Shown: positions 6,271 to 27,665, counted from the stretch's first letter. The stretch is DNA of 64,000 nucleotides from Terriglobia bacterium (GCA_965198225.1 CBDAOY010000008.1:768012-832011); one strand, 5' to 3'. The notes: a model not told the origin generated them from the letters alone. Program-made: numbers and translations.

Positions 6271-6289
6271 AACAACACCGTCCCGGGCC

Positions 6290-7743: not shown

Positions 7744-7782
7744 GCTAGGATCTACCGAATCACCTACGAAGCGGAAAGATAG
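7710..7782. repeat. 34-bp direct duplication of the 3' end of the PQQ-dehydrogenase gene (GATCTACCGAATCACCTACGAAGCGGAAAGATAG x2 separated by GCTAG)
   Basis: Exact copies at 7710-7743 and 7749-7782; the second copy abuts a family-1 element. Confidence 0.6.
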
Positions 7783-8056
7783 GACTCCTAGGCGGCCACC
7801 AAAACTCCCCTCCTCAGACCACCCCGTCTGCGCCCCTGGCGCAGCCACCTCCTTATCAAGGAGGGGAGTCCGGGGTGAGGCGAAGGGCCGGGGTGGTGTT
7901 GATCAATAAAATCCCGCCTAAACTTCTGGCGCATCCAATAGCGTGATCCAACCACCCCGTCTGTGCCTTCGGCACATCCACCCCTCCTTATCCAGAGGGG
8001 AGTCGGCTCTCGTCAAGGACAGTGCCGCCACAACGGCCTACGGATAACGGCCTACG
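7783..8056. repeat. Composite repeat block: family-1 modules (two nested copies) followed by a family-3 GGCCTACG motif
   Basis: GGACTCC...CTCCCCTCCTCAG...CTGCGCCCCTGGCGCAG...GGAGGGGAGTCC, then ...CTGTGCCTTCGGCACA...CCAGAGGGGAGTC, then CAACGGCCTACGGATAACGGCCTACGCC. Confidence 0.5.
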
Positions 8057-8059
8057 CCT

Positions 8060-10128
8060 TCACTCCTCCGGGTACGGGGTCCGGTTTCTGTAAACGATCC
8101 ACAACGTGGACACGAGTGTGACTGCGGCCAGGACGTAGACGACGGGGTCGAGCTGATCCACCGGGAATCCCTGTTCACCGGCCCAGATCGCCAAGGCGTT
8201 GTTTCCAATGTGAAGTACGATTCCGGGAAAGATCGACCCGGTCATCAGCGCGACTGCGGTGATCACGATGCCGAGGAATCCGGTCGTGATGATCCTGAAG
8301 ATCGTCACGTGGAAGAACCCGAAGATGCCGCCGACGACGAGTGCGAGCACCACCGGCCGGAACTTGCGGCGCAGACCGTAGAGTAGAACTCCCCTGAAAC
8401 CGATTTCCTCGCAGATTCCGGGCAGCACCGCCACGAAAAACATCAACTGCCACAGCGGCAGCCCCTCGGCGGCGAAGGCCTCCGACATCTGCTCCATGAC
8501 GCTCTGAGGGACTGGGAATACCGTGCTCGCGAACGCCAACACTGGGATAGCACTGAGCGACATGGCAGGCAGCATCAGCAGGATCACCGGCCAGAGACCG
8601 ACTCGAATCGGTCTGATCGCCAGGGTCTTTCGAGGGTCGAGTCCGTAAACCTTGACGATCAGCAGCGTGGTCCCGATGAACAGCACCAGCTCGTTGAAAA
8701 TGAGCTGAGCGCGCAGAGTGCCCAGCTGCGGCACTCCTATCGCGACACCGAACATCACCGCCCAGAGCACGGCAAACCATCGCCAGACGTTTGCCCGGAA
8801 AGCCGCCGGACCGGTCATCTGTGCCGGGTGCCGCTCCTGTGTGGCCGTGATGAGACGTTCCTCTCCGAGCAGGCCGGCCGAAAAGCGGACGAGCGTGAAG
8901 GCCAGCAGGGAATTGACCAGAAAGGCAACCACGGTCATCGGCCAGTCGGGGTTGCCGGCCAGGACCTCCCTGGCGGCGACACTGACGTTGGCTACCGGGA
9001 CGAGTGCGATAGCGGACCGCAGGTCGACGCCCGGGATCGCGCCGGCGAAGGCCGGCAGCATGCCCACCATATAGACAGGAAAAAAGTATAGCTGGGCCTC
9101 CTTGTACGACTTTGCGTAGGCGGACAGCATCAGGAGGACTCCGGCGACAAGAACGGCAAGCGGAACGTAGAGCAGCATCAAAGCGAGCGCAGAAGACGTC
9201 GATACCCGAAAAACGAAGTCCTCCGGCAGAGGAATGATGTCGAAGCTGGTGTAGACGAGAAGGTTGCCGACCTGGATCAACGTGATCACGAGAGCGACTG
9301 CCATGATGACCAGCTGCTTGGCGGCGATGATGTCGGTCCTGCCGGCGGCCGTCGTGAGGAGGGTTTCCAGCGTGCCACGCTCCTTCTCGCCGGCAATGAT
9401 GTCCATGGCCACGACCGAGCCGCCGGTCAAGGTGAGCAGGAACAGGAAGGCGGTGATGAACCGACCGATCTGGAGACCCGATGTCTCGGCCGCCGAGGCC
9501 ATGCTGGTTTCTTCAATCGCTATGAGTTCGGAGAATCGAATGGGGATTCCCCTGTCTTCGAAAGCGCCTTCGGCCCCATCCCGTCGGCCCAGCGTCAGCA
9601 GTCGCCGCATCCTGTTCGCACCGTCGGCTGCGGATGCCCTGTTGCCGGGAACGAAGATCTGGATCACGGGAACGCCGTCCAGGCGCCGGGCGAGTTCGTG
9701 CGGAAGTTCCCCGTCCTCATCATCCTGTTCGTCCTCGCGCGCCGCCCATTCCTCATCCGCGGCTCCGGAGCTCAGCGCGTTCAGATAGAACTGAATTTCG
9801 CGTTCCCGGAGGCTGAGTTCCGGGTCCGGAACCTGCACCTCGTGACGTTTGAAGTTGTGCAGCTCCGAATCCGGGTCCGATTGCAGGGCCTCCTCGGCAC
9901 GACCGATCAAAAGACGTGCCTCCTCGCTCCAGTCACCGGTGATTGCGTAGTCGTAGACGGTCTCCACGAGTTGCAGGTCCCGGCGTTCCGAAGCGAAGCG
10001 GGTGGCGAACAACATCACGGGCATGACCAGCATGGGAAGGATGATCGAGAGGATGATCGTCCGCCGCGACCGCAGGAGCGTGCGGATTTCCAGCTGCCAG
10101 ATGAGACGAACCGTGTCCCAGTTCAATG
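8060..10128 (-). CDS. ABC-2 family permease fused to a C-terminal CPBP (CAAX/Abi) intramembrane protease domain
   Basis: Multi-TM permease; C-terminus carries CPBP motifs EEIGFRG, FGFFH and HIGNN; TTG start overlapping the ATPase stop (ATTGA); the longer ORF 8060..10213 overlaps the ATPase. Confidence 0.65.
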
Positions 10129-10872
10129 CTGTTGCCCCTTCACGTACTTGACGAAGATGTCTTCCAGATAATGCTCGCCCGTCGCGGAACGCAATCCCTG
10201 CAGCGTGTCGCACGCCAGGATACGACCGTCGTGGATGATCGCGATCCGGTCGCAGAGCTTCTCGGCCTCGCTCATGATGTGTGTCGAGAACAGGACGGTC
10301 TTGCCCTCGTCACGAAGCTCCTTGATCGCCTCGGCCACCTCCAGGGCGTTGAGGACATCGAGGCCAACGGTCGGCTCGTCAAAAATCAGGACCGGAGGGT
10401 CGTGGGCGACGGTCCGGGCAATCGACACCTTCTGTTTCATACCGGAGGAGAGCTTCTCGACGCGAGCGTCGGCGTACTCCGTGATGCCGAAGCGATCGAT
10501 CAGCCCGGAAACACGGGCGGTGACCCCGTCGGCCGGATAGTGGTTCACGCTGGCGAAGAATTCGATCGTCTCGCGTGCGGTGAGTCGTGGGTAGAGCGCG
10601 GTCGTTGCCGAATAGAAACCGAGGCTGCGCCGCACATCGGGGGCCTCGTCGACGACATCGTAGCCCATGATTCGGGCTGTTCCCGATGTCGGAAGAATGA
10701 TCGTCGAAAGCATACGCAGCGTCGTCGTCTTTCCGGCGCCGTTGGCACCGAGGAGGCCGAAGACCTCGCCGGTGCGCGCTTCGAATCCGATGCCGTCGAC
10801 TGCACGGACCTCGCCGCGGGATTCGTCTTGAAAGGTCTTGTGAAGGTCGAAGACCGACACCGGCGCCCTCAT
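10123..10872 (-). CDS. ABC transporter ATP-binding protein (NatA-like)
   Basis: Walker A GLLGANGAGKTTTL, signature LSSGMKQKVSIA, Walker B LIFDEPTVGLD; start MRAPVSV overlaps the upstream permease stop. Confidence 0.85.
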   Translation of the reverse strand: MRAPVSVFDLHKTFQDESRGEVRAVDGIGFEARTGEVFGLLGANGAGKTTTLRMLSTIILPTSGTARIMGYDVVDEAPDVRRSLGFYSATTALYPRLTARETIEFFASVNHYPADGVTARVSGLIDRFGITEYADARVEKLSSGMKQKVSIARTVAHDPPVLIFDEPTVGLDVLNALEVAEAIKELRDEGKTVLFSTHIMSEAEKLCDRIAIIHDGRILACDTLQGLRSATGEHYLEDIFVKYVKGQQH

Positions 10873-12127
10873 CAGGCTCCCTTCCGGAGTACGCGTTCCT
10901 TGAAAAACCGGCTGAAACTCCCGCTGTATCCGCCCATGATGAAGTCCTCGTACTGAATGATCTTGAGAGCGAGCGCGATCGCGATCGCGATCGTGACGAT
11001 CTCCACGGCCAGAGTGATTCCGATCAACCGCCACTGGTACACGCCGGCGATCGCTTCGCGGAACATCAAGGCGATGTTCGCGACGGGGATCGCAGCCAGC
11101 CGGGGAGTGAATTCGATGTCGGGCACCTGCAGGAACATCAGGGGCAGAATCATGAGAATGTAGAAGGGACCGATCATCGACTGGCCTTCCTTGAAGGTCC
11201 TGGCGAAGGAGGCCAGGATCATCATGCCGGCGGCGATGAACAGGGCCATCAGGGCGGCGCCGACGACGATCACCGGAATCGATCCGAGCGGGATGCTCAT
11301 GGTCAGACCCGACACGTCTTCTCCCATCAGAGGCGTCAGGACGGCTTTCATGGAGAACGTCATCGCCGCCACATTCAGCATCCCTGCGGCGAACGACATC
11401 GTGGCGACGTAGAGGTACTTCGAGATGAGGATGCTGCTCCGGTCCGGAGCGACCGTCATCAGCGTCTCCCAGGTCGAGTTCTCGCGCTCACCGGCAGTTG
11501 AATCGATCGCCGGGTAGAGTCCGCCGACCGAGAGCATGATGATGAGGAACATGGGAACGATCAGGCCCAGTATGAACTGACCCATCTCGCGGCCGGTCGC
11601 GACATTCCGATTCTCGATCCAGAATTGCTGGAGTTCTGCCGGTTCGATACCGGCCTGACGGGCGACCCCGAGCAGATACGTCTGCCTGTAGTCGTTCAGG
11701 TGAGATTCGAGTCGGGATCGAGCCAGCAGGCTGCGATCCTTGGCCGCGTCATAGACCAGCGTCACCTGGAAGTTGTCGGCAAACAGCGGGATCGTTTCCT
11801 CGGCCTCGTCGAAGCGGACAATGATGTCCAGGGTACCGTCACGAATCGCCCGCTCATCCCGGATGGCGAGAAGTTCCAGCGTGCTCTCCGCCTCCAGCGT
11901 TTCGCGGAATGCAGCATGTTGGACGGGCAGGTCGGCCAGCGTCACCCGGGACGGCATCTGTTCGGATTGGCCGGCAACGAAAGAGATGCCGGAGTAGGCG
12001 ACCCACAGAAAGGCAGGGTAGAGAAAGATCGGGAGCAGGATGCTGTTGATGATGATGTTCCGCTCGCGAAGAGCGGACCGAAGCTCGCGTTTATATAGCA
12101 AGCCGATGTCGGAGAGACGGCGTTTCA
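10872..12127 (-). CDS. ABC-2 family transporter permease
   Basis: 6-TM ABC-2 topology; GTG start overlapping the DMT gene stop (GTGA); ORF 10872..12539 trimmed. Confidence 0.65.
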
Positions 12128-13045
12128 CCCCGATTCCTCCGTGACCATTATCGATTCGGCCTTCTGGGACCGCACGATAAATATGCCCGCGAGAATGAGC
12201 ACGATGCTGACACCCTGACCGATCACGGGACGTTCCCCCAGCAGCGCCCATGCGGCCAGCAGAGCGACGATCGGAGTCAGGTTGCCGACGACCGCCGTCC
12301 GGGCGACCCCGATGGTCTTGATGGCGTAGGACCAGACGAAGTAGCTGTAGACGATGGCCAGCCAGGCCGACGCGGCAACGCCAAACCAGGCCCAGAGGGG
12401 AACCTCCGACCAGCGTTGTTCCAGTAGCGAGGGAACGGTCAGCGGCAGCAGGACCGCTACTCCGAACACCATCGCGAGCACCGTGATCTCGAGCGTTCCG
12501 TAGCGGCGCAGTAACGAGGTTGCGGCCCCCGTGTACCAACCCCAGCAGAATGCCGCCGCCACGATCATCAGGTCTCCGACCCAGGTCCCTCGAAAAGACA
12601 CCTCATTGCCACCGAAAAGGACGATCGCCGCGACGCCCAGGACCGACAGGACGATTCCACCCAGGACCCGTCGGTTGAAGCGTTCCCGTTTCAACACAAC
12701 CCCGGCCATGTACGCGAATATGGGAGTCAGGGCGAGAAGCAGGCCGACGTTGCCTGCCCGGGTCCGGGCCAGACCGAGGACGAAGAACATCTGGTACCCC
12801 GTGTTGGACATGATACCGAGTCCGATCAGCGCCAGTACGTCCCGCCGGTCGATCCTCAGACTGACGCCGCGCAGTTTGAGGATCGAGACCATCGTCAACG
12901 TCGCGATTGTCATCCGGACGGCATTGAACGCGAGGGGATGGAGGTATTCGTAGAGGACCTTGATGATTGAGAAATTCGTACCCCAGATCACGGCGACGGT
13001 CAGCAGGAGAAATTCCACAAGGTAGATTCGCGTGCTGTCTTTCAA
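12125..13045 (-). CDS. DMT superfamily (EamA-type) transporter
   Basis: 10-TM; duplicated EamA-like halves (...TNFSIIKVLYEYLHPLAFNAVRM... and ...GNLTPIVALLAAWALLGE...). Confidence 0.8.
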   Translation of the reverse strand: MKDSTRIYLVEFLLLTVAVIWGTNFSIIKVLYEYLHPLAFNAVRMTIATLTMVSILKLRGVSLRIDRRDVLALIGLGIMSNTGYQMFFVLGLARTRAGNVGLLLALTPIFAYMAGVVLKRERFNRRVLGGIVLSVLGVAAIVLFGGNEVSFRGTWVGDLMIVAAAFCWGWYTGAATSLLRRYGTLEITVLAMVFGVAVLLPLTVPSLLEQRWSEVPLWAWFGVAASAWLAIVYSYFVWSYAIKTIGVARTAVVGNLTPIVALLAAWALLGERPVIGQGVSIVLILAGIFIVRSQKAESIMVTEESG

Positions 13046-13116
13046 TATGTCCGTTCTCGATCCGTGCGGTCTGGGGAATGTTCCGGCCCGAACTGCAGTT
13101 CGAGTAGTATAAGCCG

Positions 13117-13971
13117 ATGCTGATGAAAGACTTCGGGAATTCCGGCACGCAAGTACCCGTCATCGGACAGGGTACATGGGAAATGGGTGATCGTCCCGCT
13201 GATGCGAAGCGCGAAATCGAGGCCTTGTGCGCGGGGCTGGATATGGGCCTGACCCATATCGACACCGCCGAGATGTATGGCAACGGGCGCTCGGAGCGAC
13301 TGGTCGGTAAGGCGATCGAGGGTCGGCGGGAGGAAGTGTTTCTGGTCAGCAAAGTGTTGCCGTCACACGGCGCCTATGACGATACGATCCGAGCGTGCGA
13401 ATCCAGCCTTCGCCGGCTGGGGACCGCCTACCTGGACCTATACCTGCTGCACTGGTGGACGGGGGGGAATCCGATTGAAGAAACGATGCGCGCAATGGCG
13501 AAGCTGGTCGACGACGGTAAGATACGGTTTGCAGGCGTGAGTAACCTGGAACTCGATGAGATGGACCAAGCCCGAGAGGCTCTCGGCGGGAAACCCCTAG
13601 TCTGCAATCAGGTGCTCTACCACCTGCAATCGCGCGGCATCGAGTTCCGCATGATCGACGAGTGTGCGGACCGTAGTGTGGCAATCGTCGCGTACTCGCC
13701 TCTGGGTCAGGGAGATTTCCCGACGCCGCAGGGCCGGCAGGGCAAGGCTCTCGCGCGAATTGCGGATCGCCACGGTAAGACGCCGCGTCAGGTGGCGCTG
13801 AATTTTCTCACAAGACAACGGAGCGTCTTCGCAATCCCGAAGGCCGCTCGGAGCGATCATGTTCGTGAAAACGCCGGCGCCCTCGGATGGTCCCTGACCA
13901 GGGAAGATCTCGCTCTGCTCGATGAAGCGTTTCCGCCCCCGGCGAAGGAAGTCCCTCTGGAGATGATCTAG
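13117..13971 (+). CDS. Aldo/keto reductase family oxidoreductase
   Basis: ...IGQGTWEMGD..., ...THIDTAEMYGNG..., AKR fold motifs; 284 aa. Confidence 0.85.
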   Translation: MLMKDFGNSGTQVPVIGQGTWEMGDRPADAKREIEALCAGLDMGLTHIDTAEMYGNGRSERLVGKAIEGRREEVFLVSKVLPSHGAYDDTIRACESSLRRLGTAYLDLYLLHWWTGGNPIEETMRAMAKLVDDGKIRFAGVSNLELDEMDQAREALGGKPLVCNQVLYHLQSRGIEFRMIDECADRSVAIVAYSPLGQGDFPTPQGRQGKALARIADRHGKTPRQVALNFLTRQRSVFAIPKAARSDHVRENAGALGWSLTREDLALLDEAFPPPAKEVPLEMI

Positions 13972-14061
13972 CCGTTGCGGGTTTTCGAGGAACGAATTGA
14001 ATCAAGCTCGGGCCAGGAAGGGGCGTTGCTTCGAAGGTGCCGCGGTAGGATCTTTAGAAGG

Positions 14062-14336
14062 CTAGTGACCTGTAACAGTGCTATCGGTACCAGCGTTCGG
14101 CGGAACGGCGTCGGATTCTAGGAGTGACGCCCGAGCCAATGCTGTTTCATTGCGAGGGCGTTACGACACCGAAGACGGCGCCGTTGGGCCGAACCCTTCG
14201 GGCCGATGGGGGTTGCGGGCGATCTCTTTGTCGGAAGCCGTCACCGATGAAAGAGCATCGCTTTCCGTCTCCCTCCTCGACCTCGCCCGCAAGACCCATC
14301 GGCGATGGTGCCGATAGCACTGTTACAGGCCACTAG
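14062..14336. mobile_element. MITE copy A (275 bp; TIR CTAGTGACCTGTAACAGTGCTATCGGTACCA ... TGGTGCCGATAGCACTGTTACAGGCCACTAG; TA duplication in a CTAG target)
   Basis: Near-identical reverse-complement copy at 51729-52003, diverged copy at 35240-35514; intergenic; internal ORFs not credible. Confidence 0.75.
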
Positions 14337-14395
14337 ATGTCGATTCCGAGAAACATCTTCCCCTTATCGGGTCGCTGACTCAAGGGTTCTCTTCG

Positions 14396-15913
14396 TCAAT
14401 TCAATCGAAAGATCGTGCAACACGCCGATCGAAAGGCTTCTTCAGCTTCGGGGTCGGAATTGAGCGCGCGAATCAGATTGCCGTGATCGTTCGTCACGAA
14501 GACAAGCCGAGACTGAAAGTCGTTCCGTATGACTTCCGCCGCTCGATTACCGGTGCGCGTGACGTCGACGTACCTGTCGTACAGTTCGGGGTCCTTCAGG
14601 TACATGAACAGAGGATCGAGCCCCACGATGAAGGTGTTTTCAGGAGCGGCGTAGAATAAGACCGGGAAGTCGTCCCAATCGGCGTTGAACACCCGCTCGC
14701 CGGGCCCGGTGTTTTCCCTGAACCATCCGGCCGCTTCGAGAGCCGGGCGATCGATTCCTTCACCCTGGAGTTCGTCGATCGCAGCACGCCCATTCGACCA
14801 GGCGAAGAAGCCGGCCAGGACCAGTGCCGCCGTCATCGACACCGCCTTACGGTATCCGGCCCAGGGGAAGGGTCTGGCTCCAACAGCGACCGCTGCCAGC
14901 AGAACGGAGAACAACGGCCAGTATTCCGAGAAGCGCCGGTGCTTCAGAAAGAGCACAAAGAAGAGGACCGACACCAGGGCCAGCGCATATCGGGCGGTGC
15001 GATTGTTCTCATCGGAAGCCCTCGCGAAGCCGAGCCCCGCGAGGAAGCATGTCAGCGCGATCCAACTGCTGGACAGCAGGTGGTCGGTCTCGAATGGGTA
15101 CCACTCGTTGCCCACGCGAACCGGAAACCCGCCGATGAGCTTGGAGCTGGCATGCACGATGACGAACCTCGCGTAGTCGAGCATGTAAGGGTGAATCAAC
15201 ATCCCCGCGAGCATCCCGGCGCCGGCGAACCAGATCGGATCAAGATTCCATTTTCCCTCGGCCACGGCCGCTCCGAGCACGGTCAAGGCCACAACGCCGC
15301 CCAGCATCGGGAAGGCCGCGTAGGTCCAGGCAAAGATAAAACCGACGGCGAACAACCCCCAGCGATACCGGCCGAGCGTGAGCCAGCAACCCAGCAGCAA
15401 CAGGATCGCACCCAGCGACTGGGCGCGAAGCAGGGACATCCGGTAGAGAAAAGGCTCCGATGCCGCTCCCAGGAGCACGAACCAGAACCACGGCCACCGC
15501 ACGCCGAATTTGCGGAGGAGGAAAAAGAAGGTTCCCGCCATCGCCGTAGCGAAGACGACGGCGGCGAGTTTCACCATGATCATGGGATCGCCGAGCGCGG
15601 TGAACGGTGCCATGAGGGCATGGAACAGGTAGTGGTGATCTGCGAAGTCGGCCTCCGATAGGATCGTCATCGAGAGGTAATCGAAGCGGAATGGCAGGAA
15701 GAGATGATCCAGCATGAGGGCGGCCATTCGCGCGTGATAGTACCCGTCGAATCCGGCCAGACCCGTCACCGAGAACTGAATCCACCCGAAGAATCCGAAT
15801 GCCAGAGTCAGCGCCAGGGTGTACTGGTAGAAGGGTCTACGGATGAGGACTGCTGCCAGCGCCAGGCTCGGGGGTTCTTCGCCCCGGGTCGATGATGTGG
15901 TTTCCTCGAGCAA
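14396..15913 (-). CDS. Polytopic membrane protein, candidate GT-C-type (PMT/ArnT-like) glycosyltransferase
   Basis: About 11 predicted TM helices plus a C-terminal soluble domain; follows a GT2 polyprenyl-phosphate sugar synthase homologue in the same operon; family assignment is inferred from architecture, no catalytic motif confirmed. Confidence 0.4.
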   Translation of the reverse strand: MLEETTSSTRGEEPPSLALAAVLIRRPFYQYTLALTLAFGFFGWIQFSVTGLAGFDGYYHARMAALMLDHLFLPFRFDYLSMTILSEADFADHHYLFHALMAPFTALGDPMIMVKLAAVVFATAMAGTFFFLLRKFGVRWPWFWFVLLGAASEPFLYRMSLLRAQSLGAILLLLGCWLTLGRYRWGLFAVGFIFAWTYAAFPMLGGVVALTVLGAAVAEGKWNLDPIWFAGAGMLAGMLIHPYMLDYARFVIVHASSKLIGGFPVRVGNEWYPFETDHLLSSSWIALTCFLAGLGFARASDENNRTARYALALVSVLFFVLFLKHRRFSEYWPLFSVLLAAVAVGARPFPWAGYRKAVSMTAALVLAGFFAWSNGRAAIDELQGEGIDRPALEAAGWFRENTGPGERVFNADWDDFPVLFYAAPENTFIVGLDPLFMYLKDPELYDRYVDVTRTGNRAAEVIRNDFQSRLVFVTNDHGNLIRALNSDPEAEEAFRSACCTIFRLN

Positions 15914-16063
15914 TGTGGTAGGTCTTGATCTGTATCAGCTTAGTGGTGGTCCGACTCTGCCGATCATATGAGGGTCAGCGGCTGGCACGGCAGGGAACCA
16001 GCCGGGAGAAGTCCAGCCAGACCCCGGCGTCCGGTCGCGAGATCCTGGATCGGTTGATACGAC

Positions 16064-16837
16064 CTACGGCGTGTCGTGCCGTTCGGCCGGTAGTTCGCCG
16101 CGAGTAGGCACCTCGCCCCACCGGACGCTCCACCAGACCCGCGGCAGCTCGAGCAGCGCGCGAAGGACCACGTCGAGCCGCGCTCCCGATTGCCGGCCGT
16201 GCCGACGGGCGTAGTGGTGGACTCCGATCTCTTCAAACACGTGCCCGCGCAAGCGGAGGCGCGCGAGCAGTTCGGCGTTGAAGAGAGCTCCGGTCGAAGA
16301 AAGGGAGACTCCGGCGATGGCGGACCGCCGGAAGAGCTTGAAGGCGCAATTCATATCCCTGCAATGGACACGCAGGACCACCCCGATCAGGGTCGTGTAG
16401 AGGGAGCCGAGCAGTCCCCGTCCCGTGGCATCCTGGCGGTTCAACCGGTACCCGAGTACGCCATCCGCTTCGCCGAGGACTTCGATGAGCCTGGACAACT
16501 CGGAAACGTTGAACTGGCCGTCGGCATCGGTGAAGAAGACGAACTCGAACCTCGCTGCTTTCATCCCGCTCCAGACAGCGGCGCCATACCCGCGATTCCG
16601 GACGTGTATCACGGTCCGCAACGTTGGATATTCCGATTGCAGCCGTTCGGCTTCGTCCTCGGTACCGTCGGTGCTGCCGTCGCAGACGACGATGATCTCG
16701 TGCGTTTCCGCGCAGGAAACGCCCGTTGCCGCAGCTTCTCGGACGACATCGGCGAGGTTCTCTCGCTCGTTGTGACACGGAAGGACGATGGAAAGTCCGG
16801 ATAGCCTCAACCTTCTCTCCTCATCTGTTCCATCCAC
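16064..16837 (-). CDS. GT2 family glycosyltransferase, polyprenyl-phosphate sugar synthase type (Dpm1/GtrB/Ppm1-like)
   Basis: ...LSIVLPCHNERENL..., ...VVCDGSTDGTEDEA..., ...FFTDADGQF... (DXD); 257 aa. Confidence 0.8.
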   Translation of the reverse strand: MDGTDEERRLRLSGLSIVLPCHNERENLADVVREAAATGVSCAETHEIIVVCDGSTDGTEDEAERLQSEYPTLRTVIHVRNRGYGAAVWSGMKAARFEFVFFTDADGQFNVSELSRLIEVLGEADGVLGYRLNRQDATGRGLLGSLYTTLIGVVLRVHCRDMNCAFKLFRRSAIAGVSLSSTGALFNAELLARLRLRGHVFEEIGVHHYARRHGRQSGARLDVVLRALLELPRVWWSVRWGEVPTRGELPAERHDTP

Positions 16838-17556
16838 CGGCGCTCCTCGAGTGCCGCAACAAGGAAACAGGTCACGGCGACCAACTCCACTCCTTCGTCC
16901 CAGAAGTCGACGTACCAGTTCCCTCGGGTCGCGGCGGGGAACAGGCCGACGTCAAAAAATTGCGACAATGTAAAGAGCGCAACTCCGGCGGCAGCCAGCC
17001 GTCCCGAGCTTCTCCGGAACAACTGCCGGAACTGTCCGGTCCGGATCAACGGTCGGATGAGAAACACGAGCAGGGTCAGAACGACCCCTGCCAGCAACAA
17101 GGTGATAAGCAAGGTCAGCCAGGGTTGGTGCTGGAAAAGGTCCTCGAGAGTATTGTGGACGTTCAACATGTTGTAGTCGACCCTTCCTTCCCGTACCGCC
17201 CTGATCTGCCGGGTCACGTTGCCCCAGTCGGATTCCTCACCCGCGCCCAGGATGCCGAGAACGCCGACGGCCCGCCAGCAGTTGGGGAAGGAGGGTCGCA
17301 GGTCGCGACTGGCAGCCTGAAACGCAAATACGGAGAGGAGGATGTAGCCGACGAACTGTGCCGTTTCGACCGGACCGTTCTCCTGGAGCACAACAAGGAC
17401 GAAGTCCGATTGGGGTTCGACCAGCATCAGCAGTTCGACGATGCTGACGAACAGGATTACCAGGCCGAGAGAAAGCCGAGTCGAAGGGCTCGTCGAGGCT
17501 CGTGAACGCGGTGGGTCCGCCGTAAACGCGCGGCCGAGGAACGTTTCCGCCTTCAC
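16807..17556 (-). CDS. Hypothetical integral membrane protein (operon partner of GT2/GT-C and the pilin genes)
   Basis: Several TM helices; 4-nt overlaps with neighbours on both sides indicate co-transcription. Confidence 0.45.
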   Translation of the reverse strand: MKAETFLGRAFTADPPRSRASTSPSTRLSLGLVILFVSIVELLMLVEPQSDFVLVVLQENGPVETAQFVGYILLSVFAFQAASRDLRPSFPNCWRAVGVLGILGAGEESDWGNVTRQIRAVREGRVDYNMLNVHNTLEDLFQHQPWLTLLITLLLAGVVLTLLVFLIRPLIRTGQFRQLFRRSSGRLAAAGVALFTLSQFFDVGLFPAATRGNWYVDFWDEGVELVAVTCFLVAALEERRWMEQMRREG

Positions 17557-18779
17557 TTCCGGACCTCCCGGAACGTGATGACCCTGGTCCGGATCGACGA
17601 GAGGTAGTTGCTTATCCGAGTCATGTCGAGCGCCAACTCGAAGCTGCCTCCTCCTTCGAAGTCCCCCCCGGCGATCGCCGCGCCATAGAGATTGTGGACC
17701 GACCCCCCTCCGCCAACGTCGAAATTTCCGGAACAGATGATCAGACCGTAGAAGGCGATGTTGGACAGGTCGACATCGCCGTCCGCGATGAGGATGCCGT
17801 AGGCGCTGTTGTTGTTTCCGTTGATGTCCACGGAACGGTCGCTGTACATGAGCGCAGGATTGGCGTCTGTGCCCACGGCAAAGCCAGTGTAGCGGTAAAG
17901 GTCGGATTGGGTGACCGTCGGCGTCGCGAGATCCGTTATCGGCGTGAAAGCGGCGCTGGCGGCGGCGACGTAGCTGGCGACGTCATAGTCGGGGCTGACG
18001 CTTCCGACCATGTCGTTCGGCGCTGCCGGGAAGAACAACTGGGTCGGGGGACTGGGAGTCGGAGGGGACGTATCTGCAGCCCGAACGCCGTCGACAGTCA
18101 CACCGGCAGTCACGTCGATTCCGTTGACCGAGATGTTTCCCTGCAGGGTCACGTCCCCGTTGGTTCGAACCACAGCGTCGATCGTAGGGCTGATGATGAA
18201 TGCCGGAACGATTTCAGCCTCGACCAACTCTCGACGCCCGTTGAGGGTGGCGTAGGCCTGGATCGTCCGGATCGGCACGCCGTTGCCGGTCAGATTTCGG
18301 GTCAGGTTGCCCGTCGTAGCGTCCGGTCCCAGGTAGACGACAGTGGTCGCGTCCAGACCAGCGACACCGTCGATGTCCCGGTTCTTGTTTGCTTCAGTGT
18401 TGTAGAAGATCTTGACCAGGACGTAAGGCGGGGTTCCCCCCAGCGCGGTCGCGACGGAGGTCGAGCCGTATCCACCGTATGCGGGATCCAGACCCAGGAT
18501 GTTGACGGTCGTGTCCGAGCGGATGTACCCGGCCCAGTTGGCCGTCGGTACCGCTGGCAGACTGGGTAGCTGCGACGCGGAACCGTAAAGAAGGCGTGCG
18601 CGCGCCTCCTCGATCCCGGCATCCGCGAAGTAAAACAGTTGGAGATTCCGTTCCAGGACCGAACTCGAGCGAGCATCCTCGAGCAGGTTCATCATCAGCA
18701 GGAGGGTCAGCGCGCTCATCATCGAGAGCAGGATCAGGACCGTGATCAGCGCGACTCCGCGTGCTTTCGATGCTCTCAT
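17553..18779 (-). CDS. PilX/GspK-like large minor pilin (PilX N-terminal domain)
   Basis: N-terminus MRASKARGVALITVLILLSMMSALTLLL is a typical PilX_N/GspK hydrophobic segment; 408 aa. Confidence 0.6.
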   Translation of the reverse strand: MRASKARGVALITVLILLSMMSALTLLLMMNLLEDARSSSVLERNLQLFYFADAGIEEARARLLYGSASQLPSLPAVPTANWAGYIRSDTTVNILGLDPAYGGYGSTSVATALGGTPPYVLVKIFYNTEANKNRDIDGVAGLDATTVVYLGPDATTGNLTRNLTGNGVPIRTIQAYATLNGRRELVEAEIVPAFIISPTIDAVVRTNGDVTLQGNISVNGIDVTAGVTVDGVRAADTSPPTPSPPTQLFFPAAPNDMVGSVSPDYDVASYVAAASAAFTPITDLATPTVTQSDLYRYTGFAVGTDANPALMYSDRSVDINGNNNSAYGILIADGDVDLSNIAFYGLIICSGNFDVGGGGSVHNLYGAAIAGGDFEGGGSFELALDMTRISNYLSSIRTRVITFREVRK

Positions 18780-18841
18780 CGTCCTATCCGCCTCCGTGCG
18801 GATTGTCGATCATCTTGCAGGCGCTCCAGGGCGTCGGTGTC

Positions 18842-19981
18842 TCATCGGCTTGAATTCGAGTTGGAGTTGCCGTTCGAGTTGGAGTTGCCGTTCGAATTGA
18901 AGTTGCCGTTCGAGTTGGAGTTGCTGTTCGAGTTGGAGTTGCTGTTCGAGTTGGAGTTGGAGTTGCTGTTGCTGTTGGAGTTGCCGTTCGAATTGGAGTT
19001 GGAGTTCGTGTTCGAGTTGGAGTTCGTGTTGCCACCACCACCATTGGCGTTGCCGCCATTGCCGTTGCCCCCGGAGGGCGTCGTCATGAAGCCGAGGATC
19101 CCGCTCCGCCGAAGCGTGACGTCGGAGCTGAGGGTCACGTTGATCTGATTACCCGAGACGGGGTGGTTCTGACTCGCGAAGGATGTGACCGAGAGGTTGA
19201 TCCGCGTGATATTGCCGAGGGTGCCGGTCGGAACCGAACTCTGTCCGCTACCGCCGCCGCTACCACCGCTGCCACCGCTACCGCCGTTCCCGTTGGAATT
19301 TGTGTTGCCGTTGGAGTTCGAATTCGTGTTGCCGTTCGAGTTCGTGTTGCCGTTCGAGTTTGAATTCGAGTTGGAGTTGCTGTTCGAGTTGGAGTTGCTG
19401 TTCTGGTTGGAGTTGCTGTTTGAGTTGGAATTGCCGTTCTGCGCTGCCAACGTGATGAAGCCCCATCGGCGGAGGAGTCGAGCGACGGGAGACGCCGTGG
19501 GTGACGGGGGATTGCTGACGAAGCTTCCGGCATCACCGGTCGACACGAAATACGCAAAGAGCAACGCCGAGATATTGGATGCCAGTTGCTGCGACGTCGC
19601 CGTGCCTGTCAGGGCACCGGTCGCGTCCAACGGTTGTGTCGTCCGTGTGATGATGTTGTTGGCGTAGCTGAACGTCACCCGTTCGACCGTTCCGTCATCA
19701 TTCGTGTCGCCCGAAAAGGCGACCGTGGACTGATCGGCCTGGGCGATCGGCGTCACACCGGCGGGAGTGTTGTAGCCGGCGGACAGCAATTCCCGCCCGA
19801 TGCGTTCGGCTGCGAGCCGGGAATTCTGGCCGGCCTCGAGCTGGGACTGCTGGATCTGATAGGTTCTCTGATTCTGGGTGACGAGGAGAAAGACCGCTCC
19901 GAGGACGACCATCAACACAGCCACAACGATCAAGACTTCCAGCAGGGTGAAACCTTTGCTTCCTCTCTGTGCAGCTCTCAT
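18842..19981 (-). CDS. PilW/GspJ-like prepilin-type minor pilin with a long Asn/Ser/Gly-rich repetitive C-terminal tail
   Basis: Class III signal ...SKG|FTLLEVLIVVAVLMVVLGAV; C-terminal (NSNSNG)n, GGSGGSGGSGGGSG and (NSNSNS)n tracts encoded by hexanucleotide repeats. Confidence 0.6.
   Translation of the reverse strand: MRAAQRGSKGFTLLEVLIVVAVLMVVLGAVFLLVTQNQRTYQIQQSQLEAGQNSRLAAERIGRELLSAGYNTPAGVTPIAQADQSTVAFSGDTNDDGTVERVTFSYANNIITRTTQPLDATGALTGTATSQQLASNISALLFAYFVSTGDAGSFVSNPPSPTASPVARLLRRWGFITLAAQNGNSNSNSNSNQNSNSNSNSNSNSNSNSNGNTNSNGNTNSNSNGNTNSNGNGGSGGSGGSGGGSGQSSVPTGTLGNITRINLSVTSFASQNHPVSGNQINVTLSSDVTLRRSGILGFMTTPSGGNGNGGNANGGGGNTNSNSNTNSNSNSNGNSNSNSNSNSNSNSNSNSNSNSNSNGNFNSNGNSNSNGNSNSNSSR
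18850..19032. repeat. Tandem hexanucleotide/18-nt repeat tract 1 (GAGTTG/GAGTTC units) inside the pilW-like gene
   Basis: gttcgagttggagttgccgttcgagttggagttgc... repeated; encodes (NSNSNG)n on the minus strand. Confidence 0.75.
19288..19440. repeat. Tandem hexanucleotide repeat tract 2 inside the pilW-like gene, preceded by a GGTAGCGGC repeat (19237-19290)
   Basis: gttggagttcgaattcgtgttgccgttcgagtt... encodes NSNSNSN; the GGS-coding repeat lies immediately upstream on the coding strand. Confidence 0.75.
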
Positions 19982-20000
19982 AGACAAACTCTCCCTCGTG

Positions 20001-20405
20001 TTACGGGGCCCGATAGGTTCGGGCCGAGAGGTCGATCGGCGATGTTCCACCGATACCGGTGATAACGGTCGTGGTCACCGTGATCTCTTTCATCCCGACG
20101 CCCGGGGAATCGACTGTGACGGTCCAGGATCGGGTGAAGGCAGCTCCTGTCTCGGAAGTTTGCGGAATCCCGTCATCGTCCAGAAAGTCATTTCCGCTCT
20201 GCAAGGAATCATACGATGTGGCCTTCAATTCCTCCATCTTTTGTCGCAGGGCGGAGGTCATCCTCGAGATGTCCTGACTGTTCTTCGTTCCGATGACACT
20301 GGTGCTCATCGCGCCGGCCACCGCGAGGACGCCCGTCATCAGGATGAGCGAGGCAAGCATCAACTCGATGAGGCTGAAGCCTCTCTGGCTACTGGATGCT
20401 GACAT
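20001..20405 (-). CDS. PilV/GspI-like prepilin-type minor pilin
   Basis: N-terminus MSASSSQRG|FSLIELMLASLILMTGVLAV is a prepilin cleavage/methylation motif; 134 aa. Confidence 0.65.
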   Translation of the reverse strand: MSASSSQRGFSLIELMLASLILMTGVLAVAGAMSTSVIGTKNSQDISRMTSALRQKMEELKATSYDSLQSGNDFLDDDGIPQTSETGAAFTRSWTVTVDSPGVGMKEITVTTTVITGIGGTSPIDLSARTYRAP

Positions 20406-20940
20406 GGCTGGTTCCGGACACGGTTACCTGGAGGCTGTTCCCCAGATCGTTCGTCACCGTGACGGTGTAGTTCGCGGTGATGTAATCATTGTTCAGATCC
20501 ACGACGTCGCCCGCGCTGTCGAACGAGATTGCGTGGACTCCTGCCGAGACCGTCGGCGCGTTCGAAGAAATGTCGACGCCGCTTGGAAGCACGATCGGGT
20601 CGCCGAGATCCGCGTAGACGGTGCCAGCCGTCAGGGAAAAGGGAGCCGTCGGGACGACGCGCTGTCGCTTGTAGGAATTGGCGTTCGTCGCCGACGTGGA
20701 GGCATAGAGCAGTATCCGATAGCCGGTGGTGTCCGAGATCGCGTCAAAGTGGCTGCGCTGAACCAGGGCGGCGATGCCGCGGGCCGACCCGTCGAGGACG
20801 TAGTTGGCGTTGATACTGGTCAGGTTCGGCACCGCTATGGCCAACACGATCAGCATGATAGCGATAACCATCGCTACTTCGAGCAAGCTGAAGCCGCGGT
20901 TTGTTCGAGCCAATCCTTTACCTCCTCCAGTTTGCCGCAA
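20389..20940 (-). CDS. FimT/FimU/GspH-like prepilin-type minor pilin
   Basis: ...TNRG|FSLLEVAMVIAIMLIVLAIAV; an internal TTG at about 20910 with an 8-nt GGAGGAGG RBS may be the real start (7-aa leader). Confidence 0.65.
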   Translation of the reverse strand: MRQTGGGKGLARTNRGFSLLEVAMVIAIMLIVLAIAVPNLTSINANYVLDGSARGIAALVQRSHFDAISDTTGYRILLYASTSATNANSYKRQRVVPTAPFSLTAGTVYADLGDPIVLPSGVDISSNAPTVSAGVHAISFDSAGDVVDLNNDYITANYTVTVTNDLGNSLQVTVSGTSHVSIQ

Positions 20941-21005
20941 TCAAACGCGCAAACGGAGCATCTGGGCCCGAGGGGGCCGTCAAACATCAATCCATCGAGT
21001 GGAAT

Positions 21006-21021
21006 GGCAGTTTCGGTTCCA
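21006..21021 (-). promoter_or_regulatory. Candidate sigma-54 (-24/-12) promoter for the minor-pilin operon
   Basis: Minus-strand TGGAACCGAAACTGCC has GG-N10-GC spacing (consensus TGGCAC-N5-TTGCW), about 70-100 nt upstream of the fimT-like start. Confidence 0.25.
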
Positions 21022-21383
21022 AAACTCGACCACTCATGGTGTGAGATGTCCGGTTCCCCTAGGGGCCGGCGCAAGAGCCCCCTTTTTTAAGGATAGAACA
21101 ACGCGATTATACGAACGGGACGGAACGACTGTAAAGCGGATATTGGAGTAGGATAGCGTCCTAGACACAACGACTTGTCGTTCTTGCGCGCTTTTGACTC
21201 AGAACTTTGTCGCTAGGAGAGTGCCCCGGCACGGACGGCTTCGCGGCATTGCCAGCGCGGATCGAACGGCTACTCTTGTCAGCGCCGAACCAGACGCTCG
21301 GCCTCTGCGGGGTCGGCGAGGCAGTCAGAGCGTTGACAGCCTGAGGGTGGTCGCATCCGATGGGGCCGTCTATCGCACCCGAC

Positions 21384-22376
21384 TCAGGGGAGACGCTCAA
21401 CAAGTCGGGAGTGGAGATCCGCCAGGACCACCTCGGCGGCGCCCTGGATCGAGACATCCAACTGCGCGGAGACGGCTGTCGCTTCGAGATTGATTTCCGC
21501 GCACCCGAAGGTGGAGATCCGCGTGAGACATCCCTTTGCTTCGAGATTGATTTCCGCAGCAAAGGCTCCGCGTGCCTTTGCGGTACTGCTGAGCGATGCT
21601 GCAGGGTAGACGACCGACGAGGTCCCAACGGTCAGGAATACGTCGCAGACCAGGGCCCCGGTCGCCTGCTCGAGCGTTTCCGAGGCGATTCCTTCACCGA
21701 ACCAGACGACACCGGGTCGGATGGGGCCATCACAGTGCGGGCATGTCGGCGGCAGCTTCTCGAACGTCGTCGTTTCGTCGAGCCACTTCGGTGGCGAGGA
21801 CGGGCAATCGTTCCAGCAAGAGACCTCCCAGATCGATCCGTGGAAGCGAACCACGTTGCTCGTGCCGGCTCGCTCGTGGAGGCCGTCGATGTTCTGAGTG
21901 ATCAGGGTGAACTCGGGATAGCGATGGCTCCAATCCGCGATGACTTCGTGGGCCCGGTTGGGCCTGCAGGCCGCGATCTTTTCCCTGCGCCACTGATACC
22001 ATTCCCATACGAGTTGCGGGTTCTCTGCGAATGCCTGGGGTGTGGCGAGGCTTTCCGGACGGTAGGACTTCCACAGGCCTTCCTGGCCACGAAAAGTGGG
22101 GACGCCGCTGGCTGCCGACACGCCCGCACCGGTCAACACGGTGAGGCTTCGCGCACCGTCCAGGGCGTCGACGATCCGATCGAGTGGGTCCTCCACTGCG
22201 GAGGATTGTAGAATGGGGACATCGTTCCGCAAGGATTTGTTGAGGGCAAAAAACAATAGGGGCGGACCGGCTCCGTGCTCGATCGATCTTGGTGGTTTAA
22301 AGCGCCTGCCGTTGAACACCGCAATCTGCGACACAGTCGGCGGAGACCTACTTCCGGATAGCGACGATAGTCGCAT
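21384..22376 (-). CDS. cobB: NAD-dependent protein deacylase, sirtuin (CobB/Sir2 family)
   Basis: ...LTGAGVSAASGVPTFRG..., ...QNIDGLHERAG..., Zn ribbon CWNDC...CPHCDG; the start could also be the GTG near 22199; the C-terminal region carries a 20-bp direct repeat (21482/21539) and a hairpin (21560-21582). Confidence 0.75.
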   Translation of the reverse strand: MRLSSLSGSRSPPTVSQIAVFNGRRFKPPRSIEHGAGPPLLFFALNKSLRNDVPILQSSAVEDPLDRIVDALDGARSLTVLTGAGVSAASGVPTFRGQEGLWKSYRPESLATPQAFAENPQLVWEWYQWRREKIAACRPNRAHEVIADWSHRYPEFTLITQNIDGLHERAGTSNVVRFHGSIWEVSCWNDCPSSPPKWLDETTTFEKLPPTCPHCDGPIRPGVVWFGEGIASETLEQATGALVCDVFLTVGTSSVVYPAASLSSTAKARGAFAAEINLEAKGCLTRISTFGCAEINLEATAVSAQLDVSIQGAAEVVLADLHSRLVERLP

Positions 22377-22570
22377 CCGATCGAGCTGAAGGCTGAACGC
22401 TGATCGCCCACCTGCCCGGATTTTGTGGACAGGAGCTCGTGTCCGATTGATTATTAAGCCGAACGACTTAAACGGGACGAATGCCACCGGGGTCTATCCG
22501 GTAAGCGAGCTCTCGGAAGCTCGCGGTCGCACGATGGTTCGGAAGACACTCAGTTCTGGATGAATCGCCA

Positions 22571-23806
22571 ATGAAGAACGCGAAACTGCACGCCTTCAAC
22601 AGACTCGCATTTGGGCCGCGGCAGGAAGATCTCGATCGCGATCTGGTCGATCTTCAGGAACACGTCGAGGTCCAGCTCCACCCGGCCGACATCGCCGACC
22701 AGGCGATAGAGCAGCGGCTGGCGACCCTGGAAACGCTCGGCATGTCGCCCCTGGAGTTCCTGAGGAAGTATCCCGGGCGCCGGGACTGGCGGATCGGTTT
22801 GCAGCAGCTGACGGCCGCAAAGCTGCTGCGCGCCGTCCAAAGCGAATGCCAGCTCCGGGAAGTGATGGTCGACTTCTGGTTCAATCACTTCAACGTATTC
22901 GCGGGTAAAGGTGCATGCCGGCTCCTGGTTTCTTCCTACGAGAGAGACGCCATCCGCCCGTACGTCTTCGGAAAGTTTCGCGAACTGGTGTCGGCGACGG
23001 CGCGCCACCCTGCGATGCTGTTCTACCTGGACAACTGGCTGAGCGCGTCGCCCGACGCCGAGCCGCGTGGGCGTCGTCGTGGGCTCAACGAGAACTATGC
23101 CCGGGAGTTGATGGAACTGCACACGCTCGGCGTCGATGGTGGCTACACGCAGGAAGACGTCGTCGCCGTGGCGCGCGCCTTCACCGGCTGGACGATAGAG
23201 GCCCCCCGGCGCCCGAGCTTCATGTTTGCCCCACCGCTGCATGACGACGGTGCCAAGACCGTCCTTGGCAGGGCGATAGACGGCGGCGGGATGCGGGATG
23301 GCGAACAGGTGATCGATGTGCTCTGTGGTCACCCGTCTGCGGCGCGGTTTGTCGCGACCAAATTGATTCGGCGTTTCGTCTCCGACGATCCCCCTGCGGC
23401 GCTGGTGGAGAGTGTGGCGCGGACGTTTACCCGGACGGATGGCGACATCCGGGAGATGCTCCGCGTGGTGATCCATTCGCGGGAGTTCGCCGAATCGGAA
23501 CAGCAGAAGGTCAAGACGCCGTTCGAGTTCGTCATCAGCGCCGTGCGTGCGCTCGGAGCCGAGGTGAGCAATCCCGGTATTCTCGCGCGGTTCCTGCAGC
23601 GGATGGGTCAGCCGCTCTACATGGCCATACCGCCGACCGGCTACTCCGACGAGGCGGCCGATTGGATGAGCTCCGGCACGCTGATGTTGCGTCTCAACTT
23701 CGTGGCGCAGATCGCTGCGGGGCGATCGCGGGGAATTCAGCTCGACGGGCGCGAGCCGGAGCAGATCGTCAGGAATCTGGGGACGCCGGAGTTTCAGCGG
23801 CGCTAG
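22571..23806 (+). CDS. DUF1800 family protein
   Basis: ...WFNHFNVFAGKGACRLLVSSYERDAIRPYVFGKFRELVSATARHPAMLFYLDNWLS... is the diagnostic DUF1800 block; pairs with a DUF1501 gene. Confidence 0.7.
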   Translation: MKNAKLHAFNRLAFGPRQEDLDRDLVDLQEHVEVQLHPADIADQAIEQRLATLETLGMSPLEFLRKYPGRRDWRIGLQQLTAAKLLRAVQSECQLREVMVDFWFNHFNVFAGKGACRLLVSSYERDAIRPYVFGKFRELVSATARHPAMLFYLDNWLSASPDAEPRGRRRGLNENYARELMELHTLGVDGGYTQEDVVAVARAFTGWTIEAPRRPSFMFAPPLHDDGAKTVLGRAIDGGGMRDGEQVIDVLCGHPSAARFVATKLIRRFVSDDPPAALVESVARTFTRTDGDIREMLRVVIHSREFAESEQQKVKTPFEFVISAVRALGAEVSNPGILARFLQRMGQPLYMAIPPTGYSDEAADWMSSGTLMLRLNFVAQIAAGRSRGIQLDGREPEQIVRNLGTPEFQRR

Positions 23807-27615: not shown

Positions 27616-27665
27616 TCCTGCTCGGCAACGGCCAAGGAACGATCTCGTTCGACAACGGCGGATGA

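Follow-up and report, generated by a model that had tools for sequence, protein, structure and literature searches.

Protein glycosylation by membrane enzymes of the GT-C fold is known in few bacterial systems, namely PglB, PMT, TfpW and the streptococcal PgtC2. In streptococci, GtrB together with a GT-C enzyme (PgtC2; Pgf) glycosylates Ser/Thr-rich disordered regions (PMC12041528). The GT-C enzyme TfpW of Pseudomonas aeruginosa group IV is encoded in the pilin cluster and glycosylates Ser/Thr of the major pilin PilA with D-arabinofuranose oligomers (10.1101/2020.04.19.049825). In addition, the three-component periplasmic glycosylation systems GtrA/GtrB/GtrC and ArnC/ArnT are well described (PMC11127046). 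Here, we analyse a 64-kb (64,000 nucleotides) stretch of DNA, referred to as the window, from a soil acidobacterium (Terriglobia bacterium, CBDAOY010000008.1:768012-832011). It contains seven co-directional open reading frames (ORFs), arranged head to tail on the minus strand (20940-14396), all of which are present at the positions of the original prediction. They encode four prepilin-type proteins, a polytopic membrane protein of 249 amino acids, a family 2 glycosyltransferase (GT2) and a GT-C-fold protein of 505 amino acids. The evidence tips slightly towards an operon that would tie the four tip pilins of a type IV filament to glycosylation in the periplasm by a module dedicated to this purpose.

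The candidate glycan acceptor of this module is the PilW/GspJ-like product of gene 3 (18842-19984, minus strand), a prepilin-type protein of ~380 amino acids when translated from the ATG at 19984; the longest ORF, from the GTG at 20050, gives 402 amino acids. It was expected to end in a single Asn/Ser/Gly-rich tail of ~200 amino acids. Instead, it carries two Asn-rich segments, which are split by a conserved stretch of the pilin domain of ~65 amino acids. Segment 1 (residues ~204-262; 19217-19456, minus strand) consists of (N-S/G/T)n followed by (GGS)n and forms an insertion within the pilin domain. Segment 2 (residues ~326-402; 18842-19087, minus strand) is a C-terminal tail composed of (N-G)n followed by (N-S)n. 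Segment 1 contains 26 Asn, 25 N-x-N and no N-x-S/T, and segment 2 contains 31 Asn, 29 N-x-N and a single N-x-S/T, so that the two together have 54 N-x-N and one N-x-S/T. No other low-entropy Asn-rich coding segment is found in the window.

Both segments are kept in all six aligned PilW-like orthologues, with varying lengths; the repeat lengths differ by four residues even between the near-identical assemblies L001 and L002. The repeat DNA has a period-6 identity of just 65-69%, and the Ser codons within it are mixed (TCC, TCG, TCA and AGC). The N-x alternation is therefore maintained at the protein level, and the mixed Ser codons indicate selection on the protein sequence. A slippage-prone microsatellite is ruled out as the sole explanation of the repeat DNA by the same identity values and the use of four Ser codons. 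The repeat DNA also gives rise to spurious long ORFs, both in alternative frames and on the complementary strand (18840-19557; TPTRTA..., LELEF..., SSWSCC...), which are not genes.

The linkage between the GT-C protein and Asn-rich sequences extends across the GT-C family. Asn-rich segments, defined as 40-amino acid windows free of stop codons in which Asn makes up at least 35%, were located in six-frame translations of 160 distant loci, comprising 80 genome loci and 80 independent metagenome loci. Segments within 2.5 kb of the GT-C gene were counted as near, and those in the outer flanks as far. Among the genome loci, 53 of 80 have a near segment; their 359 kb of near sequence hold 80 segments, and their 843.5 kb of far sequence hold none. 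The metagenome loci contain 66 near versus 2 far segments; near segments occur at 49 of the 80, and at 23 of the 28 that have at least 1.5 kb on both sides. Pooled together, 102 of the 160 loci have a near segment, corresponding to 146 segments in 601 kb near versus 2 in 1,088 kb far (rate ratio 132, binomial P 1.4e-62), and 144 of the 146 near segments lie on the strand of the GT-C gene.

The pooled segments are composed of 36% Asn, 22.5% Asp, 10% Ser, 10% Gly and 5.5% Ala, and 69% of the steps from one Asn to the next span two residues. Among 3,921 Asn residues, 2,667 stand in N-x-N and 180 in N-x-S/T. In twelve segments, Ser and Thr together make up less than 3% of the residues (NGNANGN and NDNANDN are examples), which leaves Asn as the sole residue common to all. 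The carrier proteins have unrelated architectures, including DUF5666 lipoproteins, DUF5667+DUF5666 anti-sigma-like proteins, a Binatia protein, a small Cys protein of Zetaproteobacteria and the PilW-like pilin of Terriglobia, and the feature they have in common is the (N-x)n region. In Blastocatellia, the carriers combine DxDxDG repeats with a C-terminal DUF5666, and four loci (L011, L012, L021 and L046) contain the N-rich gene, the GT-C gene and a GT2 gene in this order, the GT2 being ~40% identical to that of the window. This linkage to Asn-rich low-complexity secreted proteins across phyla gives comparative support to the earlier proposal of a plausible acceptor in the Asn/Ser-rich part of the PilW-like protein. 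The simplest account is that enzymes of the GT-C family attach sugars to disordered, Asn-rich regions in exported proteins, with the GT2 supplying the lipid-linked sugar. In many Chloroflexota loci, an extracytoplasmic function (ECF) sigma factor and a DUF5667/DUF5666 anti-sigma-like protein are often encoded downstream of the GT-C gene (for example L004:11615-13874, and ~12000-13400 in L040 and L044). The extracytoplasmic end of this anti-sigma-like protein is also Asn/Asp-rich, and glycosylation may thus touch a signalling module in Chloroflexota.

The 505-amino acid protein is encoded by gene 7 (14396-15913, minus strand). A sequence search yielded ~120 homologues annotated as 'hypothetical', with one UniRef exception named 'RgtA/B/C/D-like domain-containing'. 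An exhaustive profile search extended the family to 4,028 clusters (at 50% identity) with E<=1e-3, among them 2,068 with E<=1e-30, mostly from Chloroflexota and Blastocatellia. The protein matches no Pfam or NCBIfam family, and neither phmmer nor the family profile finds a PDB sequence. Likewise, 39 family members have no Pfam match even at E<=1, including STT3 (PF02516), PMT, PMT_2, MIR and Wzy_C. The AlphaFold2 (AF2) model of the protein, based on the alignment of these 39 sequences, is of high confidence (pLDDT 93, pTM 0.92). A Foldseek search of the PDB with this model retrieves GT-C enzymes exclusively at E<=1e-3, led by the STT3 subunits of the yeast and human oligosaccharyltransferase (OST) with E 1e-8 and TMq 0.65-0.70, followed by AglB, DPY19, ALG12/ALG9, PglB, AftD and ArnT. 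In a second fold comparison, the leading figures are 22.2 for A. fulgidus AglB (428 residues, 3.1 Å), 20.8 for STT3B and 20.6 for AftA, followed by Pmt4 and ALG12 (both 19.9), DPY19 (19.0), ArnT (18.2) and PglB (17.9).

The model shows the GT-C helix arrangement with a long first periplasmic loop, and its C-terminal part forms a globular domain, predicted to be periplasmic, that is OST-like and resembles that of AglB. The GT-C-like architecture assumed in the original prediction is thus backed by a confident model and by fold searches. Assignment to the ArnT or PglL/Wzy_C families gains no match from sequence models, and the fold is GT-C rather than O-antigen-ligase-like. Residues invariant among the 39 sequences include D56 and H60, located right after the first transmembrane (TM) helix, R158, R327, E330, Y331, G431, L432 and D433. 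D56 may be the acidic catalytic residue that GT-C enzymes conserve in their first periplasmic loop. In addition, H98 is invariant and belongs to an invariant or near-invariant DHHxLFH stretch, and the invariant E270 is located in the sole low-confidence (flexible) loop of the model. The family motif [TA]DWDDF (D412-F416), of which W413, D414 and F416 are invariant, is located ~28 residues past the last TM helix. From this position we infer that DWDDF occupies the place of the WWDYG motif, which in OSTs binds the +2 Ser/Thr of the sequon. Some members of the family have further domains. P0283 is a fusion of GT2 and GT-C, and six proteins (P0166, P0179, P0213, P0251, P0279 and P0282) have C-terminal extensions of ~150-200 amino acids, with a sub-threshold PA14 match in P0279 (19.9 versus 24 bits).

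The original prediction described the GT2 and GT-C proteins as a PMT-like pair performing O-glycosylation. A pair of this kind would modify Ser/Thr of the pilin tail from a polyprenyl-phosphate sugar, as do actinobacterial Ppm1/Pmt or streptococcal GtrB/PgtC2. We consider this unlikely, as neither the window protein nor any of the 39 family members matches PMT, PMT_2 or MIR, and the closest folds are AglB and STT3, N-glycosylating OSTs, with a C-terminal domain of the AglB type. A different 505-amino acid protein, encoded beside the GT-C gene in L007, does match PMT_2 (26.4 bits), and the model can therefore detect such proteins in this clade. Moreover, the acceptor-side residue shared by the family is Asn, as twelve of the neighbouring segments are essentially free of Ser/Thr. 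O-linkage is hence in doubt and possibly incorrect. Asn is a likelier modified residue than Ser because it is common to all repeats, because some repeats are without Ser/Thr, and because the closest folds, including the C-terminal domain, are N-glycosylating OSTs. Modification of Ser is possible, because Ser is abundant in the repeats of the window, Pmt4 is nearly as close in fold, and the known GT2 plus GT-C systems acting on disordered regions are O-linked (PMC12041528).

A more specific reading, which we put forward tentatively and regard as rather doubtful, is that the 505-amino acid protein belongs to a family of miniature AglB/STT3-like OSTs with at least 4,000 clusters. These enzymes would N-glycosylate Asn within (N-x)n, with N-x-N as the acceptor, using polyprenyl-monophosphate donors provided by a Dpm1/AglJ-like GT2. 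If true, mucin-like glycosylated disordered regions would occur on lipoproteins, on anti-sigma factors and, in a clade of Terriglobia, on a tip pilin. Euryarchaeal AglB, which uses dolichyl phosphate (Dol-P)-linked glycans begun by the GT2 enzyme AglJ, would be a relevant precedent. Another would be a study of Halobacterium, in which N-glycosylation is reportedly tolerant of Asn at the +2 position.

The GT2 is encoded by gene 6 (16064-16837, minus strand) and is composed of 257 amino acids, or 248 when translated from the TTG at 16810. It matches Glycos_transf_2 (PF00535, E 1.6e-25) in Pfam. The NCBIfam matches, all under the equivalog cut-offs, are led by ArnC (1.3e-17), PgaC/IcaA (1.1e-15) and AglJ (1.2e-14), followed by PpgS, a haloarchaeal Dol-P-hexose transferase and PgfS. 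Among PDB sequences, three ArnC entries come first (8e-16 to 6e-15; 9hwj 8e-16), the Pyrococcus furiosus DPMS 5mlz follows (1.7e-11), and GtrB 5ekp (3e-5) ranks after chondroitin synthase. The GT2 is thus most similar to polyprenyl-phosphate sugar synthases (ArnC, DPMS, AglJ, PpgS, PgfS and GtrB), and we regard it as a candidate enzyme of this type. It is shorter than ArnC (257 versus 322-327 amino acids), and no 19-mer of it reaches a Kyte-Doolittle (KD) value of 1.6 in a search for TM segments. Judged by these features, it resembles the TM-less Dpm1/Ppm1 type, as originally proposed, more than GtrB or ArnC. GT2 enzymes of the Dpm1/Ppm1 type need a membrane partner.

The 249-amino acid protein encoded by gene 5 (16807-17556, minus strand) is polytopic, with ~6 helices. 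It matches no Pfam or NCBIfam family, including the GtrA and flippase models. The protein family is restricted to the clade, with homologues in eight clusters (57-100% identical), and all of those with context examined sit at this locus. The AF2 model, built with the eight homologues, is too poor for use (pLDDT 55.6). Because of its translational coupling to the GT2, our guess is that this protein anchors the TM-less enzyme and/or acts as a flippase. Three members of the GT-C family (P0141, P0142 and P0151) have an N-terminal polytopic domain of ~250 amino acids, duplicated in P0142, with motifs that recall the 249-amino acid protein. This likeness is unproven, with hhalign E values of 0.009 versus P0142 alone and 0.27 in the profile-profile comparison.

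Taken together, a pathway can be proposed for the operon. On the cytoplasmic side of the membrane, the TM-less GT2 would use a nucleotide sugar to load polyprenyl phosphate with a sugar. The lipid-linked sugar would then move to the periplasmic face, where the 249-amino acid protein, as guessed above, may help in addition to or instead of anchoring the GT2. The AglB/STT3-like GT-C protein would transfer the sugar to the two Asn/Ser-rich disordered segments of the PilW-like pilin. Finally, the modified pilin would enter the priming or tip complex of a pilus machine encoded elsewhere, so that the tip would carry a glycosylated disordered 'brush'. The module would have been recruited, in this clade, to a minor-pilin operon whose PilW-like subunit bears the acceptor region.

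The arrangement of the seven genes probably reflects a single transcript. Genes 1 and 2 overlap by 17 nucleotides and genes 4 and 5 by 4 nucleotides. Genes 5 and 6 overlap by 4 nucleotides (TTGA, with GGAGAGAAGG ahead of it), or by 31 nucleotides if the upstream GTG is the start. The overlaps of 4-17 nucleotides described originally hold for these three junctions (17, 4, and 4 or 31 nucleotides), and the junctions 2/3, 3/4 and 6/7 are gaps of ~16, ~62 and ~150 nucleotides, respectively. A terminator scan found none convincing within the cluster, nor in the 150-nucleotide gap between the GT2 and GT-C genes. A candidate sigma-70-like promoter (TTTACA-18-TATAAT, 11/12; 21106-21135, minus strand), recognised by consensus match, is located ~165 nucleotides upstream of gene 1, and it is the one promoter-like site within 14000-21500.

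The seven-gene arrangement recurs in at least six related assemblies of Terriglobia (GT-C 57-97% identical). The same seven genes are found in the same order in L005 and L009 (GT-C 97% identical to that of the window), L006 (87%), L008 (73%) and L169 (on a 6.4-Mb contig). L007 contains the same genes (GT-C 72%) with a PMT_2-type GT-C gene inserted between the GT2 and GT-C genes. Downstream, the extended locus (11595-20070, including the PMT_2-type gene) encodes a SAM methyltransferase, a GMC-oxidoreductase-like protein, a second TM-less GT2, a membrane protein of 97 amino acids, a DegT aminotransferase and an FkbM methyltransferase, which hints at a modification of greater complexity, perhaps with amino or methyl sugars. 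In L001 and L002 (GT-C 57%), the gene of the 249-amino acid protein has moved upstream of the pilin genes and is in divergent orientation. Insertion sequence (IS) elements flank the GT-C gene in L003 and L005 as well; in L003, it adjoins an IS66 transposase gene and no pilin genes are present.

Outside this clade, tblastn and a prepilin-motif scan of the 160 distant loci found pilins near the GT-C gene at L083 alone, from Mariprofundus (Zetaproteobacteria). A general pilin link for the GT-C family is thereby ruled out, and the conservation of the gene order together with pilins, on which the original prediction depended, is found in one Terriglobia clade and on one Mariprofundus contig, not across the family. 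In L083, four prepilin-type genes (6138-9043) are followed by the gene of an N-rich protein (9167-9841) and by a GT-C gene (9935-11413), whose product is ~34% identical to that of the window. The N-rich protein has 224 amino acids, a signal peptide and NSNNSNNSNN... repeats. The fourth pilin gene scores 21.5 bits with PilX_N, under the cut-off of 25.5 bits. The contig ends 480 nucleotides past the GT-C gene, which places any following GT2 gene out of view.

Several observations weigh against the proposed coupling of pilins and glycosylation. Gene adjacency alone is no proof of an enzyme-substrate relation, and the 150 nucleotides between the GT2 and GT-C genes make co-transcription an assumption. 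Most members of the GT-C family are encoded away from pilins, and in L089 and L153, where closer relatives of the Mariprofundus GT-C are encoded, a small secreted partner is retained and pilins are missing. About one third of the family loci have no Asn-rich neighbour at the threshold used; several of these 'negative' loci are contig ends or contain Asp-rich variants just below the threshold. N-x-S/T sequons are almost absent from the repeats, and the literal OST motif WWDYG is absent from the family. In L001 and L002, a DDE_Tnp_1_4 IS element (L001:7279-9827, with the same coordinates in L002) splits the GT2 gene, leaving residues 11-45 and 41-242 on either side, while the pilins, the 249-amino acid protein and the GT-C are intact. 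The module is therefore dispensable or able to use another donor. The small secreted partner in L089 (11442-11840, minus strand) and L153 (535-897, plus strand) ends with C-x-C...G-x-W...REI/V-x-G-Q/K, and contains NS repeats in L089 and none in L153. A PilM-like gene is located ~3 kb downstream in L153.

Part of these observations would also fit a GtrABC- or ArnC-ArnT-type system, in which the 249-amino acid protein, the GT2 and the GT-C act on lipopolysaccharide, exopolysaccharide or a cell-wall polymer, and the pilins are close by co-regulation or history. Known three-component systems likewise consist of a membrane protein, a GT2 and a GT-C (PMC11127046), the GT2 is closest in sequence to ArnC, and AftA, ArnT and ALG enzymes are close in fold to the 505-amino acid protein. 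The position of most family members away from pilins is in line with such a system, as are the DegT, methyltransferase, second GT2 and GT-C genes added in L007, which are reminiscent of polysaccharide loci. However, this explanation accounts neither for the adjacency of the family to unrelated Asn-rich secreted proteins in several phyla nor for the restriction of the Asn-rich segments of the window to the operon's own pilin, and the 249-amino acid protein matches no GtrA or flippase model. We therefore consider it improbable. It is more improbable by far that the 505-amino acid protein is a non-catalytic GT-C fold, like PIG-U/GAB1 of the glycosylphosphatidylinositol (GPI) transamidase, that handles, anchors or exports Asn-rich disordered proteins, given the invariant acidic and basic residues of the family and its adjacent or fused donor synthase.

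The pilin part of the operon is composed of genes 1-4, the products of which were scanned, together with the other three proteins, against Pfam and NCBIfam. The FimU/GspH-like gene 1 (20389-20940, minus strand; 183 amino acids), the PilV/GspI-like gene 2 (20001-20405, minus strand; 134 amino acids) and gene 3 score 25.4, 25.6 and 30.9 bits with N_methyl, respectively, all above the gathering cut-off of 21.2 bits. The PilX/GspK-like gene 4 (17553-18779, minus strand; 408 amino acids) scores 29.2 bits with PilX_N, above the cut-off given above, and its N-terminus matches GspK (E 2.5e-4). The four prepilin-type N-termini noted earlier are thereby confirmed. The leader peptides of the first three proteins (...RTNRG|FSLLEV, ...SSQRG|FSLIEL and ...GSKG|FTLLEV) follow the pattern G|F(S/T)L(L/I)E, and the product of gene 4 is without Glu+5, like GspK and PilX. 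The genes are therefore assigned the order FimU/GspH, PilV/GspI, PilW/GspJ and PilX/GspK. Orthologues of gene 1 are present in L001, L005-L009 and L169, and homologues of the PilX-like and 249-amino acid proteins are detectable solely in the clade with the full operon.

As to whether the filament is a type IVa pilus, a type II secretion system or another filament, all indications are weak: gene 1 matches GspH and Verru_Chthon cassette D weakly, gene 2 matches type_IV_pilV under the cut-off (E 1.3e-4), the PilV, GspH, GspK and Verru_Chthon cassette matches are all sub-threshold, and the window contains no machine genes. No pilus or type II secretion machinery gene, including PilY1 and PilE, is found in the rest of the window. 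Genes 1, 3 and 4 have sub-threshold matches to Verru_Chthon cassettes D, C and A (E 8.5e-6, 1e-5 and 0.12, respectively), which may reflect a distant relationship of the four pilin-like genes to the uncharacterised Verru_Chthon pilin-like cassette.

In the surroundings of the operon, Rfam and tRNA scans of the window gave no match and no tRNA gene. A gene for an IstB-like IS21 helper ATPase (5515-6270, plus strand; E 1e-61) indicates that a mobile element is present ~8 kb away from the operon. Genes of the PEP-mutase, radical SAM and beta-lactamase families stand in a row at 26635-30034 (plus strand). The trio is syntenic in L005, and in L007 and L169 the last two genes only were called; it might be a small phosphonate or modified-metabolite cluster. 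Relatives have a Glyco_transf_21-type GT2 gene (383-403 amino acids) between a SIR2 gene and a DUF1800/DUF1501 pair (L006:3800-4951, L007:4583-5794, L008:1530-2690 and L169:5822-6982). At the equivalent site of the window (22487-22571) there is too little space for this gene, and none was called in L005 either.

The analysis indicates a further, very widespread GT-C family without a Pfam or NCBIfam model, the candidate substrates of which can be read from gene neighbourhoods. If the proposed activity is true, the Asn-rich (N-x)n repeat would be a new type of acceptor, and a function would be assigned to the low-complexity regions associated with DUF5666 and DUF5667 in Chloroflexota and Acidobacteriota. 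To judge from our literature searches, the operon would also be the first known to contain a glycosylation module dedicated to a minor (tip) pilin. The pilus tip is the part that contacts surfaces, cells and phages. Moreover, the compact enzyme-acceptor pairs, consisting of one to three genes, could be of use in glycoengineering. Literature searches for DUF5666, for GT-C with asparagine-rich, and for oligosaccharyltransferase with Chloroflexi and PglB returned no account of the family or its association.

Compared with the fimU-pilVWXY1E and gspHIJK operons, the pilin genes keep the H-I-J-K or FimU-V-W-X order, with Glu+5 leaders in the first three proteins and a PilX_N/GspK-type fourth protein without Glu+5. 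The operon differs from them in that PilY1, PilE and machine genes are absent from the 64 kb, the PilW-like protein contains two Asn-rich disordered segments, and glycosylation genes follow downstream. TfpW offers a parallel, as this GT-C enzyme, whose gene is part of a pilin cluster, modifies a pilin in the periplasm with a polyprenyl-phosphate sugar as the donor. By its description, TfpW is an Emb-like protein of 646 amino acids with a TPR-type periplasmic domain, whereas the enzyme here is AglB-like and would act on a minor (tip) pilin into which an Asn-rich stretch is inserted. The streptococcal GtrB and PgtC2 combine a GtrB-type GT2 with a GT-C enzyme, as proposed here, to decorate extracytoplasmic disordered low-complexity regions of membrane-associated proteins. 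Their acceptors are Ser/Thr-rich rather than Asn-rich, the GT-C belongs to another family, the hosts are Gram-positive, and neither a pilin link nor a comparable adjacency of enzyme and acceptor genes is found there.

The GtrA/GtrB/GtrC and ArnC/ArnT systems share the combination of a small membrane protein, a polyprenyl-phosphate sugar GT2 and a GT-C, and the GT2 of the window is nearest to ArnC. However, this GT2 is without the C-terminal TM helices of GtrB and ArnC, the acceptor is probably a protein, and the 249-amino acid protein is not GtrA-like, the GtrA family domain having about 120 amino acids and four TM helices. The closest folds of the 505-amino acid protein, including its OST-type C-terminal domain, are those of AglB, STT3 and PglB (GT66). 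In contrast to these enzymes, it is much shorter, matches no STT3 model or PDB chain by sequence, and has DWDDF in place of WWDYG. The candidate acceptors are N-x-N periodic, with N-x-S/T nearly absent. The presence of a GT2 gene alongside suggests that the donor is linked through a monophosphate and possibly consists of one sugar, rather than being an oligosaccharide on a diphosphate. What is new in the locus, relative to all of these systems, is an enzyme family without a sequence model and with a miniature AglB-like architecture, a candidate (N-x)n acceptor and a minor pilin as the putative target.

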